Assembly: GCA_022710715.1 (NCBI GenBank)
Contig: JAKLGJ010000004.1
Coordinates: forward strand, 320,166-384,165
DNA: 64,000 nucleotides
Reading direction: 5' to 3'
DNA from: Candidatus Omnitrophota bacterium
GTDB taxonomy: Bacteria; Omnitrophota; Gorgyraeia; Gygaellales; Profunditerraquicolaceae
The notes under the pieces were generated by a model. The model saw nothing but the letters and a program-made list of their open reading frames with translations. It ran no database searches and was not told where the DNA came from. A program made the translations under genes and the position numbers. Numbering within the stretch: position 1 is the stretch's first letter; each line of letters opens with the position of its first letter. Positions 16,954 through 45,493 of this stretch are shown here, piece after piece.

Positions 16954-16992
16954 GGGGGGACGTTCCTGAAGGTACCACCCCTGAAAAATACG

Positions 16993-17024
16993 GGGCCGGA
17001 CGAAAAGTCCGGCCCTTTTGTTTT
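16993..17024 (+). terminator. rho-independent terminator
   Basis: GGGCCGGACgaaaaGTCCGGCCC hairpin followed by TTTTGTTTT. Confidence 0.65.
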
Positions 17025-17067
17025 AACTCATTGTCAGGCAATCATCAGAGTGCTATAATTAAACCAG

Positions 17068-17102
17068 TTATCCACAGGCAGTCCCGGACGGCCTGTGGAT
17101 AA
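17068..17102. repeat. perfect 12-bp-arm palindrome containing DnaA-box 9-mers (copy 1 of conserved leader)
   Basis: TTATCCACAGGC-AGTCCCGGACG-GCCTGTGGATAA. A TATAAT hexamer sits 9 nt upstream. Conserved CTTCTC..AATAT..CTGCA..AACAGGAGGGG follows to the ATG at 17142. Confidence 0.8.
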
Positions 17103-17141
17103 CTTCTCTGAAATATCTGCAGCCAACAGGAGGGGGAGGAT

Positions 17142-19715
17142 ATGCTGATTGTATGGGCTTTGAGTGTGATTGCCTGCGTAGCGATCGCTGTCGCTAAAAA
17201 CCGGTCGTTAGTGGGCTGGTTCTTCCTGGGGCTTTTGCTGGGGCCGATCGCGGTGATTCTGGCCGTTCTGTCCCCGAAAATCGAGAAGACTGGGGCGATC
17301 AAAGTATCGGATGTCGATACTTCCGGCGATCTATCCAGCGATGCGCTCAAGAACCAGTTAACCGCGCTCAAGACCGAAGTGGAGTATCTTAATCGGCGTC
17401 TCGGTATCCTGTCGGAGAAGATCGCTTTGCTGACCCCGGAAAATATGCCTCCGGCGGAAGAAAAGATCGAACCGCCGGTTGCCGAACCGCTGCCTGCCGT
17501 CGAACCGCTGTCCGCCGCCGAACCGTTCCCTCCTGCCCAGAGCAAGGCTACCTCTGCCCAGCAGCCCGATATCGAGACGGATCTGGGTAAATTCTGGTTG
17601 AACAAGATCGGCATTATCGTGTTTTCGCTGGGCGTGGCATTTTTGTTGACCTATGCCTTCGCTCATGTCGGCCCGCTGGCCAAAATAATCTTCGGTTACC
17701 TTATTGCGGTTGGATTGTTTACCGCGGGCGCCAAACTTGAAGTCCGGGAGAAATTCTCCAACTATGGCCGGGTATTGCTGGGCGGGGCATGGGCGATCGC
17801 GTATTTCACCACCTATGCCATGTATCATTTTGAAGCATCGAAAATTCTCTATAACCAGCCTCTGGAACTGATCCTCCTGGCGGTAGTGGCGCTGGGGATC
17901 ATCGCGCATTCTTTGAAGTATAAATCGGAAAGCCTGACCGGGATCGCGCTCTTCATCGGCTACGTCACGTCGGTTATAGGCGATGTGGCGCCGTTCACGT
18001 TGATCAACGCGGGATTCCTGGCTTTGATCTGTCTGTTCCTTGTCTATAAGATGCAGTGGATCCGCTTCATTTTTGTGGGGATCGTGCTGACCTACCTGGT
18101 GCATTTTGCCTGGGTGGTCAAGCAGATCGTCGCTTCGTTCGTGCCGGTAGGCACGCTTGACGTGCAAAACGTTTTCTTTTTGTTCGACGCGGGATTCTTA
18201 AGCATTTACTGGGTGCTGTTCACTGCGGCTTTGCATTTGATAAAGCCCCGGAACGATGCGTCCCACCTGCAAAAATTAGCGATGGCTAATCTGTTGAATT
18301 TTCTGCTGTTTTTCTTCATGACCTACCCCAAATTCTACTATTTCTATCCCCATTTGAAGTTCGAAATAGTCCTGGGCCTGGGAATTGTTTATCTTGTTCT
18401 TTCTATTCTGATGAATCTGGCCAGGCGTCCGGCTCTGTTTGTCTGCGATGTGGTGGTGGGGATCAGTCTGCTGACTTTGTCCATCCCGTTAAAATTCATG
18501 CAGTATCAAACGACGGTGCTCTGGCTGATCGAATTGCCGTTTTTGCTGTTCCTGGGGTTTGTGCTGGAAAAGCGGGTTTTAAGATTCTTGAGCTTCGGAT
18601 TGGCAGTCATGTTATTCCTGAAATTCCTGGTGATGAGCGAATGGACGGGGTTCCTCTCGCTGTTCGGCGCTTTTTCTACCGCGGCCTGTTATATCCTCTA
18701 TCGCTTCGCCCACGCATCCGAGCGCTCCGAACAGTCATTGCAGAATTGCTACAGCGGTTTTTGCGTGGTTTTTGTGAGCATGTACCTGACGCAAACCCTG
18801 AACCCGTTGTGGCTGACTTTTGGACTCTCGCTGCAATCCCTGGTTTTGTTCGTCTGCGGCGTTCTCTTGTGCGACCGTTATATACGCTGGTACGCGCTGG
18901 CTGTTTCAGGGATAGCGGTGAGCAGGTACTTTTTCTATGACCGGTGCGATAGCGTGACCAATCTGCCGCAGGCGGTGATGGTCCTGGGGCCGATCTGTTG
19001 TTCTTTCGCGCAGTATTTTCTTTATCGCGCGCTGGACAAGAAACAACCATTCGGGCAAGTGGAACGTTTCATCAAGCGCCTGGTATTCTTCGCGGCAGCA
19101 TCGCAGCTCGTTTTTGCCGCGGTAGTATACATGCCCAGGATGTGGATCAGTTTAAGCCTGGCCGCGATCGCCGTTTCAGCTCTGTGGTGGGGAGGGAAGA
19201 TCGGGGATATCCCGATACGGGCCTATTCGCTGCTGGTTTTGCTGATGATGGGGCTGCGCTGCGCGTTTATCGACGATTACGCGTGGATGAGCGAAGCGGT
19301 AAAATGGTTTTTGATCTCGGCGAAAATCGCCGCTCTCTACGTTTATTATTTCGTTTTCCGTCAATTGAGAAGAAAAGCGGTCCTGCAGATGCCGGAAGTA
19401 CCGGTGGTCGATCTGCCTTTTTACGCCGGCACCGTGCTGCTCATTCTGATGATCAGCCGATTTATCAAGGACATCTGGATCTCGGTCGCGCTGGGCATCG
19501 CAGGGGTGTTGATGTTCGCGGCGGGATTTTTGCTCAAAGAAAAAATATTCCGCCACGCGGGGTTCATCCTTTTCGGGATCACTCTGGGGAAAATAGTTTT
19601 TATCGATCTTTCGGGCTTGCCGATACTATATAAGATCGTCAGCTTTATCATTATCGGCATCCTGTTCCTGGGGGTTTCCTTCATTTACACCAGGAACAGC
19701 TCGGCCCGCAAATAA
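17142..19715 (+). CDS. DUF2339-like polytopic membrane protein
   Basis: 857 aa. N-terminal TM, a coiled-coil/Pro-rich linker, then more than 20 predicted TM helices. Matches the architecture of DUF2339 proteins. Confidence 0.55.
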   Translation: MLIVWALSVIACVAIAVAKNRSLVGWFFLGLLLGPIAVILAVLSPKIEKTGAIKVSDVDTSGDLSSDALKNQLTALKTEVEYLNRRLGILSEKIALLTPENMPPAEEKIEPPVAEPLPAVEPLSAAEPFPPAQSKATSAQQPDIETDLGKFWLNKIGIIVFSLGVAFLLTYAFAHVGPLAKIIFGYLIAVGLFTAGAKLEVREKFSNYGRVLLGGAWAIAYFTTYAMYHFEASKILYNQPLELILLAVVALGIIAHSLKYKSESLTGIALFIGYVTSVIGDVAPFTLINAGFLALICLFLVYKMQWIRFIFVGIVLTYLVHFAWVVKQIVASFVPVGTLDVQNVFFLFDAGFLSIYWVLFTAALHLIKPRNDASHLQKLAMANLLNFLLFFFMTYPKFYYFYPHLKFEIVLGLGIVYLVLSILMNLARRPALFVCDVVVGISLLTLSIPLKFMQYQTTVLWLIELPFLLFLGFVLEKRVLRFLSFGLAVMLFLKFLVMSEWTGFLSLFGAFSTAACYILYRFAHASERSEQSLQNCYSGFCVVFVSMYLTQTLNPLWLTFGLSLQSLVLFVCGVLLCDRYIRWYALAVSGIAVSRYFFYDRCDSVTNLPQAVMVLGPICCSFAQYFLYRALDKKQPFGQVERFIKRLVFFAAASQLVFAAVVYMPRMWISLSLAAIAVSALWWGGKIGDIPIRAYSLLVLLMMGLRCAFIDDYAWMSEAVKWFLISAKIAALYVYYFVFRQLRRKAVLQMPEVPVVDLPFYAGTVLLILMISRFIKDIWISVALGIAGVLMFAAGFLLKEKIFRHAGFILFGITLGKIVFIDLSGLPILYKIVSFIIIGILFLGVSFIYTRNSSARK

Positions 19716-19727
19716 AGTTATGCACAG

Positions 19728-19762
19728 GGAGTCCCGGAAGGCCTGTGGATAACTTCTCGGGA
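19728..19762. repeat. imperfect copy 2 of DnaA-box palindrome / conserved leader
   Basis: TTATGCACAGGG-AGTCCCGGAAG-GCCTGTGGATAA followed by the same CTTCTC..GAATAT..CTGCA..AACAGGAGGGG leader up to the PilZ start. Confidence 0.8.
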
Positions 19763-19792
19763 ATATACTGCAACGAACAGGAGGGGAAAGTA

Positions 19793-20134
19793 ATGGTCAA
19801 AGAACGCAGATTATTCGTCAGGTTTGCCATGTCCGGTATCGTGGTGGTGCAGATCGATCCGTCGAAAAAAGACACCATTGATTGTGAGCTGTCCGATCTA
19901 AGCTACGACGGTATCGCTTTGTTTTCGCCGCAGGAATTGAAGGCCGACAGCCAGATCAAGTTCATTGTGATCAACGGGCAGTTAAATGTCAATATCGGCG
20001 GGCTGGGAAAAGTAGTTTATTGCAAGCCGGTGCTGTATAACGATAAGTCGTATTTCCGCGTCGGGATTCAATTTATGGAAGTGGACCGCGCGCAAGTCAG
20101 GACCATTCTTACCCGCGTGCGCGATATTCTGTGA
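19793..20134 (+). CDS. PilZ domain protein
   Basis: 'RRLFVRF' (RxxxR) and 'DLSYDGIAL' (D/NxSxxG) c-di-GMP binding motifs. Confidence 0.7.
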   Translation: MVKERRLFVRFAMSGIVVVQIDPSKKDTIDCELSDLSYDGIALFSPQELKADSQIKFIVINGQLNVNIGGLGKVVYCKPVLYNDKSYFRVGIQFMEVDRAQVRTILTRVRDIL

Positions 20135-20143
20135 GAAGGCCGG

Positions 20144-20929
20144 ATGAAAACAGCCATTTATTATTTTTCGGGAACGGGTAATTCCCTGGTCCTGGCCAGA
20201 GACCTGGCCGCGCAGCTGGGTGACGCCCGGATCATCCCCATAGCCAGGACGTTGATCTCCGGATGGGATGAACAGGCGGATATCGTGGGGATCGTTTTCC
20301 CCGTGTACATGTTCGGCTTGCCGCTTATCGTGGCGGATTTTCTTAAAGCGCTGAAAGTCAAGCCCGGCGCGTACGTTTTTACCGGGGCTACTCTAGGCGG
20401 GTTGCCCGGAAGAGCGCATACCCTGGCGCGTCAGATCCTCAAGCGGCGGGGCATTACTCTTGCCGCCGGTTTTTCGGTGCGCATGCCGGGGAATTACACT
20501 CCTCTGTATGAGGCGATCCCGCAGGATCAACAGGAGAAATTGTTCCGCGGGCAGAAAGAGCGGGTTAAAGAGATCGCGAGAATAGTCGAGCAGCGTAAGG
20601 GCGCCTGTAGGGAAGAGAAACCGTTATGGATCAATTCTTTGCTCTACGCCTTAGTATACAAAATCGGCATCGCGCAGATACCTCCGGCGGGAAAAGATTT
20701 CCGGGTCACTGCGGCGTGTAACAAATGCGGGTTGTGCGAAAAGATCTGTCCGGTTGCCAATATTCATCTGCGTGACGGCAAACCGGTATGGCTGCGCCAT
20801 TGTCAGCAATGCATGGCTTGCCTGCAATGGTGCCCGCAGGAAGCGATACAGTATAAACAATCGACGCAGGGACGCAAGCGCTATCGCCATCCGGAGGTAA
20901 CCGCGCAGATGATCATGGAGCAGCGATGA
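20144..20929 (+). CDS. EFR1-family flavodoxin-like protein with 2x[4Fe-4S] ferredoxin domain
   Basis: N-terminal 'AIYYFSGTGNS' flavodoxin-like P-loop. C-terminal 'CNKCGLCEKICP' and 'CQQCMACLQWCP' cluster motifs. Confidence 0.7.
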   Translation: MKTAIYYFSGTGNSLVLARDLAAQLGDARIIPIARTLISGWDEQADIVGIVFPVYMFGLPLIVADFLKALKVKPGAYVFTGATLGGLPGRAHTLARQILKRRGITLAAGFSVRMPGNYTPLYEAIPQDQQEKLFRGQKERVKEIARIVEQRKGACREEKPLWINSLLYALVYKIGIAQIPPAGKDFRVTAACNKCGLCEKICPVANIHLRDGKPVWLRHCQQCMACLQWCPQEAIQYKQSTQGRKRYRHPEVTAQMIMEQR

Positions 20930-21225
20930 CGGATAACGCCCGCCTGGTGTATTCCACCGAACAAGGCAGAATCAGGGAAAAGATCCGCCCGGCGCCGCCG
21001 GTCGGCGATGGGAAAGTGCGCCTGCGCTATGATACCAAAGGGCGTAAAGGCAAAGGGATGACCCTGATCAGCGGGTTGCCGGTTGATGCTGCGGAGCTGG
21101 CGGCGATCGCCAGGAGATTGAAACAGCGATTTGGCACCGGCGGAGCGGTCAAAGACGGCGTCATCGAGCTGCAGGGAGACGTGCGCGAGCAGGCGGCGGA
21201 AGAATTGCGAAGGTACCACCCTTGA
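20926..21225 (+). CDS. SUI1/YciH family translation initiation factor
   Basis: 99 aa. 'RKGKGMTLISGL...GTGGAVKDGVIELQGD' is typical of SUI1. Confidence 0.75.
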   Translation: MTDNARLVYSTEQGRIREKIRPAPPVGDGKVRLRYDTKGRKGKGMTLISGLPVDAAELAAIARRLKQRFGTGGAVKDGVIELQGDVREQAAEELRRYHP

Positions 21226-23937: not shown

Positions 23938-24047
23938 GCAATACGCGTTGTTGAACGTGTAAAAGTTCAAGAGTTACGACAGGAACGCCTTGATTGTCCG
24001 GCCACCCAACCGCCGGCGGATCAAGGCGTTTTTGTCGTATGCTTGTC

Positions 24048-37177: not shown

Positions 37178-37251
37178 GCGCCCGTGGCTCAACTGGATAG
37201 AGCACTAGCCTACGGAGCTGGTTGTTGGTGGTTCGAATCCACCCGGGCGCA
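37178..37251 (+). tRNA. tRNA-Arg (anticodon ACG)
   Basis: Hand-folded cloverleaf: acceptor GCGCCCG/CGGGCGC, D-arm GCTC-AACTGGATA-GAGC, anticodon stem CTAGC/GCTGG with loop CT-ACG-GA, T-arm GGTGG-TTCGAAT-CCACC, discriminator A. Confidence 0.85.
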
Positions 37252-37795: not shown

Positions 37796-37884
37796 GGAGA
37801 GGTGGCAGAGTGGTCGAATGCAACTCACTGCTAATGAGTTATCTGGGGAAACCTGGATCCTGGGTTCAAATCCCAGCCTCTCCG
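37796..37884 (+). tRNA. tRNA-Ser (anticodon GCT)
   Basis: Acceptor GGAGAGG/CCTCTCC, anticodon stem AACTCA/TGAGTT with loop CT-GCT-AA, long variable arm, T-arm CTGGG-TTCAAAT-CCCAG, discriminator G. Confidence 0.85.
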
Positions 37885-45439: not shown

Positions 45440-45493
45440 GACGCTTTCCCCTGGACAAAATTTTTTGCAGGCAAGTAGACCCACCGTAAGCCA

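Follow-up and report, generated by a model that had tools for sequence, protein, structure and literature searches.

The window analysed here is a 64,000-nt stretch of a Candidatus Omnitrophota bacterium (GenBank assembly GCA_022710715.1, contig JAKLGJ010000004.1, positions 320,166 to 384,165), and the element in question is a short leader that occurs in it twice, once in front of a gene for a DUF2339 membrane protein and once in front of the next gene, which encodes a PilZ-domain protein. A 4Fe-4S (Fer4) protein gene and a SUI1/YciH-like gene come after these and, because the genes are tightly spaced or overlapping, they probably belong to the same operon as the two preceding ones. The identities of the DUF2339 and PilZ genes had been proposed from the letters of the DNA alone (hereafter the sequence-only reading) and were confirmed by Pfam; the DUF2339 protein is 100% identical to P0001 from a Candidatus Omnitrophota metagenome-assembled genome, and the source contig in JGI is 3300010429 Ga0116241_10000002 (1.62 Mb). 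The description that suits the feature best is that of a leader cassette close to the promoter, recently duplicated, with a palindrome made of two convergent consensus DnaA boxes (Table 1).

Table 1. Features of the locus, in window coordinates (SD, Shine-Dalgarno sequence)
Feature	Position	Strand	Details
Intrinsic terminator of the upstream operon	16992..17016	+	10-bp stem with 8 GC pairs, then T-run
Sigma-70-type promoter	17031..17059	+	TTGTCA-17-TGcTATAAT, 11/12 consensus; TATAAT at 17054-17059, extended -10 TG at 17051-17052
Copy 1, palindrome	17066-17104
Copy 1, perfect arms	17066-17079 / 17091-17104		14 nt each
Copy 1, overall arms	17066-17084 / 17086-17104		19 nt, 95% complementarity, 1 nt between
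Copy 1, left arm	17068-17079		TTATCCACAGGC
Copy 1, spacer	17080-17090		AGTCCCGGACG
Copy 1, right arm	17091-17102		GCCTGTGGATAA
Copy 1, consensus DnaA boxes	17068-17076 and 17094-17102	+ and -	TTATCCACA, exact 9-mer match, convergent
Leader 1, remainder	17105..17141	+	CTTCTCTGAAATAT, variable stretch, SD AGGAGG at 17128-17133, 8 nt before ATG
DUF2339 membrane protein gene	17142..19715	+	857 aa; PF10101, E = 1e-44
Copy 2, palindrome	19716..19754		starts 1 nt after the DUF2339 stop codon
Copy 2, left arm	19718-19729		TTATGCACAGGG
Copy 2, right arm	19741-19752
Copy 2, left box	19718-19726	+	TTATGCACA, fits relaxed consensus
Copy 2, right box	19744-19752	-	TTATCCACA, exact
Leader 2, remainder	19755..19792	+	SD AGGAGG at 19779-19784
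PilZ-domain protein gene	19793..20134	+	113 aa; PF07238; first gene of the conserved PilZ-Fer4-SUI1 block
4Fe-4S protein gene	20144-20929	+
SUI1/YciH-like gene	20926-21225	+

The DUF2339 transcription unit is isolated from the operon upstream, which comprises genes for an extracytoplasmic function (ECF) sigma factor, an anti-sigma factor, an LTXXQ protein and a hypothetical protein, by the intrinsic terminator that lies in front of the promoter. From the usual distance of about 7 nt, transcription is predicted to start at about 17066, the first base of the palindrome, the hairpin of copy 1 beginning 7 nt past the -10 hexamer. Counted from this predicted +1, the palindrome covers +1 to +39 and the boxes +3 to +11 and, on the opposite strand, +29 to +37, with a gap of 17 bp between the two 9-mers. 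A suhB/mmgR-like Rfam match at 16958-17030 is sub-threshold (25.8 bits vs a gathering threshold of 41) and is explained by the terminator hairpin and its U-run, not by a small RNA.

The sequence-only reading had described a perfect inverted repeat with 12-bp arms at 17068..17102, a canonical DnaA box in each arm, and an imperfect second copy at 19728..19762. All of the strings that it quoted are present, and the dyad of copy 1 is longer than it had stated, forming a near-perfect palindrome of 39 nt in which the spacer between the 12-nt arms also pairs with itself at 5 of 6 positions (p about 0.005). Only two loci of the window, copy 1 and the terminator at 45493, have perfect inverted repeats with arms of 12 nt, whereas shuffled sequences have 0.1 on average. 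For the second copy, the coordinates had been set 10 nt too high. Tested against the 9-mer TTATCCACA or the relaxed form TTWTNCACA, all four arms contain a DnaA box, exact in three of them and reading TTATGCACA in the left arm of copy 2, so that the claim of a canonical box in every arm stands for three arms and falls for the fourth. This C to G change lies at the sole degenerate position of TTATNCACA and is the only box change in this genome. An extended 12-mer, CCTGTGGATAAC, is shared without change by three arms, the two of copy 1 and the right one of copy 2.

The duplication of the leader, also claimed beforehand, is genuine: 17066-17144 and 19716-19795 differ by 11 substitutions and one gap over 80 columns (85% identity), and the 29-mer AGTCCCGGANGGCCTGTGGATAACTTCTC occurs twice where 0.00 occurrences are expected. 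The duplicated unit of ~77 nt runs from the start of the palindrome, i.e. the predicted +1, to the start codon and includes the SD, and the coding sequences that flank the two leaders are unrelated. Within the 64-kb window no third copy of the leader was found by pattern search, blastn-short or nhmmer. Upstream of copy 2 a promoter scan found no consensus promoter, the best candidate by eye being TAAAGT with no -35 element. The same arrangement is present in the independent assemblies L245, L246, L247 and L253, and copy 2 also in the sister species L248; the arrangement is therefore not an assembly artefact.

Comparison with relatives indicates that the element is recent. The nearest DUF2339 homologues are only about 55% identical, and at the five loci with orthologs of 50-55% protein identity the leaders share no sequence or structure with leader 1, lack the DnaA-box palindrome and have different neighbours. 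The sister species (98% PilZ identity, ~9% divergence at third codon positions) keeps DUF2339, leader 2, PilZ, Fer4 and SUI1. PilZ orthologs at 59-68% identity keep PilZ-Fer4-SUI1 and have different genes upstream, TATAAT promoters of their own and no such palindrome in their leaders. Because the distant orthologs have neither the element nor the adjacency of DUF2339 and PilZ, we conclude that both are young and confined to one species-level lineage. The regulon envisaged in the sequence-only reading thus finds no support, either as a third copy in 64 kb or in orthologous DUF2339 and PilZ leaders. The PilZ-Fer4-SUI1 block itself (19793-21225 here) is conserved in Omnitrophota relatives (L248, L249, L251, L252) down to 59% PilZ identity, and its upstream neighbour is variable, being DUF2339 here and a DUF748/OmpA-like gene in L252.

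Within the lineage, copy 2 of the sister species reads AGTTATCCACAGGGAGTCCCGGAATGCCTGTGGATAACTTCTCTGAAAT, a 10-nt deletion and then GAACAGGAGGGGGAAGTAATG, the deletion lying between hairpin and SD. Between the two species copy 2 differs by five substitutions in 67 aligned bases (7.5%) in addition to this indel and, because this is close to the ~9% seen at third codon positions, copy 2 drifts at about the neutral rate with no detectable constraint. In that species both boxes are perfect, and the only change that creates a pair is a loop-side G to T, which adds an isolated one. When copy 1 is taken as outgroup, the inferred ancestral copy 2 differs from it at only two of the first 51 positions, which dates the duplication to little before the split of the two species. 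Leader 1 of L253 is identical (same strain), and the sequences of L254 and L255 end before the leader; for the sister species, leader 1 falls into the gap of assembly GCA_025490955.1 between contigs JAOQIC010027728.1 and JAOQIC010014558.1. The evolutionary comparison rests on three sequences and its statistical power is very low.

Our preferred reading, held tentatively and with a probability of roughly 0.4, is that the convergent box pair is a DnaA operator or roadblock that also folds as a 5' hairpin. DnaA would occupy the high-affinity boxes of copy 1 and hinder promoter escape or elongation, whereby expression of the DUF2339-PilZ-Fer4-SUI1 operon would be tied to the availability of DnaA. 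Copy 2, which has no recognisable promoter of its own, would form a second roadblock inside the operon, and the transcript would inevitably fold into a hairpin at the extreme 5' end of the mRNA, possibly with some added protection from 5'-end-dependent decay. The start of transcription, the binding of DnaA and the effect on expression are in this case what we infer from the sequence.

By our own calculation, a perfect box would occur by chance in a given 13-bp arm with a probability of about 4e-5. We also count in favour of DnaA that +1 to +39 of a promoter matching 11 of 12 consensus positions is where a bound protein blocks RNA polymerase. That DnaA represses promoters and blocks polymerase during elongation is established for E. 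coli and B. subtilis (PMC11317965, PMC2533591), and TTATGCACA, the variant seen in copy 2, is bound by DnaA in E. coli at polA and nrdA (PMC11317965). As here, the DnaA-regulated genes of these bacteria (dnaA, nrdAB, mioC, guaB, polA and purH in E. coli; dnaA, ywlC and yydA in B. subtilis) have consensus TTATCCACA boxes at the promoter and in the transcribed region (PMC11317965, PMC2533591). The g/c flanks of E. coli DnaA sites are likewise present on the boxes of this locus. The differences are that the boxes here are convergent and 17 bp apart, that the spacer is palindromic, that the target genes have no replication link and that the sites are putative ones, known from their sequence.

Several of our observations weigh against DnaA as the ligand. 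In vivo, E. coli DnaA is found at tandem double boxes 2-3 bp apart and at only 13 of 32 consensus single boxes (PMC11317965), and in B. subtilis binding needs dense box clusters (PMC2533591); two boxes per site, convergent and with a 17-bp gap, resemble neither layout. On direct reading there is no tandem partner box beside either arm (the 9-mers 2-3 bp upstream match at 3-4 of 9 positions), and a double box of the E. coli type, with both boxes in the same orientation and 2-3 bp apart, is absent. Within 150 nt of each site there is no further DnaA box, so that the density of a cluster, of oriC or of datA is not reached; the window as a whole has seven relaxed boxes (3.1 expected), four of them in the two copies. 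A replication-linked locus is not supported, for want of such a cluster. The datA and DARS loci resemble the locus in having high-affinity boxes outside oriC, here as two sites within 2.7 kb, but they hold three to five boxes and IHF sites in specific arrangements, whereas each site here has two boxes and no such arrangement. To our knowledge, none of the genes at the locus (DUF2339, PilZ, Fer4, SUI1) has a link to replication. For a box pair a self-complementary spacer is not required, and its presence here is a sign that a hairpin was selected or that an inverted duplication took place recently. The boxes were judged by the general consensus. The absence of the palindrome from the leaders of more distant DUF2339 and PilZ orthologs and the near-neutral drift of copy 2 count on the same side.

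Box pairs of a similar kind occur in other DNA. Pairs of the extended box TTATCCACAGG at 9-17 nt from each other are far above chance in metagenomes (L126-L244) and in IMG/VR viral contigs (L256-L429), the chance expectation for 21-22 specified bases being, by our own rough estimate, about 2 per 10^12 bases. At least 119 metagenome stretches contain convergent pairs of the form TTATNCACAGG-N9-17-CCTGTGGATAA, and those read comprise 83 distinct sequences. Among the matches listed, 47 of these 83 have no other box within 150 nt, and many convergent pairs stand alone in intergenic DNA; 29% lie inside any open reading frame (ORF) of at least 100 aa, compared with 72% for random positions; and the spacers are mostly non-palindromic, a self-complementary one being seen in 3 of 85 metagenome entries, one of which is copy 1 itself, and in none of 40 viral pairs. 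In the same matches, no -10 hexamer is enriched at a fixed distance upstream of the metagenome palindromes. The pairs are thus far more frequent than chance, mostly outside ORFs and mostly without palindromic spacers, which argues for a motif selected at the DNA level and not for hairpins. Furthermore, viral contigs contain pairs in all orientations (74 convergent, 34 divergent and at least 120 tandem stretches), and the motif therefore clusters as DnaA boxes do. A search of genome contigs with GCCTGTGGATAACTTCT returned sites in Actinobacteria and Pseudomonas that share only a DnaA-box-like 17-mer, with no Omnitrophota among the matches listed.

It is a long shot that isolated convergent extended-box pairs (GTTATCCACAGG-N9-17-CCTGTGGATAAC, the one here being fully palindromic) constitute an unrecognised class of DnaA control site, which in this Omnitrophota lineage would couple an operon with an effector of cyclic di-GMP (c-di-GMP), PilZ, to the state of replication initiation, or that the element, once extruded or single-stranded, loads helicase as a chromosomal DnaA hairpin of the A-site kind. 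In the A-site of the ABC primosome, a DnaA box (R1-type) likewise forms the stem of a hairpin, which is what defines that site (Masai 1990, Carr and Kaguni 2002, as cited in PMC6127211). The A-site acts on single-stranded plasmid or phage DNA to load DnaB, whereas the element described here is chromosomal and sits in a gene leader, with nothing that indicates priming.

The main rival reading, possible albeit doubtful, confines the function to the RNA, where a 5'-terminal stem-loop would shield the 5' end from decay of the RppH, RNase E or RNase J type; the DnaA-box sequence would in that case be coincidental or historical. If the polycistronic mRNA were cut in the AU-rich AAAUAAA that immediately precedes copy 2, the processed PilZ-Fer4-SUI1 mRNA would begin with the same hairpin, and the stability of the downstream genes would differ from that of DUF2339. 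Copy 1 indeed folds very stably (-26.8 kcal/mol, z = -7.85), with 17 of 18 possible pairs in its stem and a probability of being unpaired, P(unpaired), of 0.02 in the arms. The hairpin begins at the predicted +1; on that prediction, the stem would lie within about 0-2 nt of the 5' end, as a stabiliser of this kind requires. The dyad continues through the spacer and 2 nt past the boxes, and the limits of the duplicated unit, exactly from +1 to the start codon with the SD inside, suit an RNA element as well. The SD is largely accessible, its mean P(unpaired) being 0.57 in copy 1 and 0.70 in copy 2, so that a stable hairpin is combined with a mostly unpaired SD.

Stem-loops at the 5' terminus are established stabilisers of mRNA, with precedents in the 5' stem-loop of ompA and in papA mRNA after processing (Emory 1992, Bouvet and Belasco 1992, Bricker and Belasco 1999, as cited in the review PMC3997798). 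The likeness consists of a stable hairpin at the first nucleotide, here a predicted one, upstream of an accessible SD, and copy 2 recalls papBA in sitting where processing of a polycistronic RNA could expose the hairpin. However, the stem at this locus is much longer than needed and is made of DnaA boxes, and the RNA-level explanation does not account for an exact DnaA box occurring twice in it. The stem of copy 2 is moreover decaying: relative to copy 1 it has three substitutions, all of which break pairs, and a C to A change in the loop, and its fold has weakened from -26.8 to -16.5 kcal/mol (z = -3.2). The PilZ orthologs do not have a consistent hairpin at +1 (a small one in L249, none in L250 and L251), and both the transcription start and the processing site are predictions.

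Alternatively, copy 2 could be a recent and essentially neutral by-product of the rearrangement that placed DUF2339 before the PilZ operon, only copy 1 being functional, if either is; we regard this as unlikely. It fits with the restriction of the leader and of the DUF2339-PilZ adjacency to one species-level lineage, with the different upstream genes and separate TATAAT promoters of distant PilZ orthologs and the unrelated neighbours and leaders of DUF2339 orthologs (50-55%), and with a copy 2 that drifts about neutrally, tolerates a 10-nt deletion and is losing its stem. On the other hand, both boxes and the SD are intact in two species, the ancestral copy 2 was only 2/51 positions away from copy 1, and three sequences give the test of neutrality very low power. 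The fallback offered by the sequence-only reading, a recent local duplication, is nevertheless largely upheld as regards its age and the drift of copy 2.

Repression of the promoter from +1 to +39 by another dimeric transcription factor, instead of DnaA, seems to us quite improbable. Dyad symmetry and a promoter-proximal position are typical of repressor operators, and the placement of a 19-mer with DnaA-box sequence in Micrococcales (below) suggests that such a sequence can serve a promoter-linked role outside oriC. Against this, there is no adjacent regulator gene (the ECF sigma/anti-sigma operon upstream is closed by its terminator, and PilZ, Fer4 and SUI1 follow downstream), a 39-bp dyad far exceeds typical operators, and no other site was found in 64 kb.

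Among the matches listed, Micrococcales (Arthrobacter, Pseudarthrobacter, Paenarthrobacter, Microbacterium and others) have the 19-mer GCCTGTGGATAACTTCTGC at a constant distance of 31-32 nt from the start codon, upstream of genes that are unrelated to one another (loci L009, L027-L029, L033, L036, L042-L044, L071, L082, L096, L115-L121 and others). By their N-terminal sequences, these genes resemble Ser/Thr kinases, an LPPWLADS-motif family and lipoproteins, and the ATG is immediately preceded by a -10-like hexamer. The pattern suggests a conserved, promoter-linked motif with DnaA-box sequence, probably in front of leaderless transcripts. That the same 19-mer position also lies 32 nt from the DUF2339 ATG in our window is probably a coincidence.

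Finally, a riboswitch, attenuator or other structured cis-regulatory RNA spanning the whole leader has next to no chance of being correct: the 5' untranslated region (UTR) position, the extension of the duplication to the SD and the possible pairing of CUUCUCUG with the SD region in the sister species would suit it, but Rfam gives no matching family even with E relaxed to 10, the leader forms a single hairpin with no U-tract, leader peptide or conserved alternative fold, SD pairing is predicted in neither copy of this genome, and the hairpin-to-SD distance that varies by a 10-nt indel and the non-compensatory stem changes argue against it. Of the shared cis-regulatory element proposed in the sequence-only reading, an operator-type or 5'-UTR element therefore stays reasonable, with a hairpin at the predicted start and exact box 9-mers, and the attenuator or riboswitch-like part does not.

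A number of further identities were considered as well. The hairpins are followed by CTTCTCTG and CTTCTCGG, not by a U-run, and are absent from the list of the terminator scan, so they are not intrinsic terminators. On direct reading, the ends GTTATCC and GGATAAC do not fit the RYYYAAC and GTTRRRY required of an integron attC site, and a parS site was rejected on sequence. Two copies in 64 kb and the lack of a plasmid or phage match were the outcome of a check for dispersed repeats of the repetitive extragenic palindromic (REP) or miniature inverted-repeat transposable element (MITE) kind, and an origin from a mobile element was discarded as no similarity was found in plasmid or phage collections. 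A binding site for CsrA, suggested by GGA in the loop and ACAGGAGG at the SD, was a sequence resemblance only and was dropped. An anti-SD pairing of CUUCUC with GAGGGG is confined to L248 in the predictions, both copies of this genome lacking it.

Coming back to the DnaA operator or roadblock, should DnaA really bind, the locus would provide a first indication that the uncultured phylum Omnitrophota has a DnaA transcriptional regulon, and a PilZ (c-di-GMP) signalling operon would be connected to replication status. Such binding would furthermore imply that convergent box pairs with wide spacing, abundant as they are in metagenomes, can function outside the tandem double-box rule of E. coli. 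As no more than a 5' hairpin or a young duplication, the element would be an ordinary lineage-specific leader with no wider consequence. In neither case is it a new riboswitch-like RNA; the element is probably an ordinary one of control or stability, close to the promoter.

Some minor observations concern the surroundings of these genes. A search of the whole window against Rfam gave, at gathering thresholds, two tRNAs only (37178-37251 and 37796-37884) and, at E up to 10, sub-threshold chance matches only. Between convergent genes at 23975-24039 lies a long imperfect hairpin with 28-nt arms that are 82% complementary, followed by a T-run, which has the appearance of an ordinary bidirectional terminator. 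On another Omnitrophota contig (L003/L004, 2315-2809), an IS200/IS605-type Y1 transposase gene is located directly upstream of, and divergent from, a DUF2339 ortholog. In a near-identical strain (GCA_035914815.1, L253; 0-0.4% divergence), 12 nt, AGCGATCTATCT, are inserted in frame into the N-terminal part of DUF2339 at 17336/17337 of the window (2626-2637 in L253), the remainder of the 1.3 kb compared being identical.

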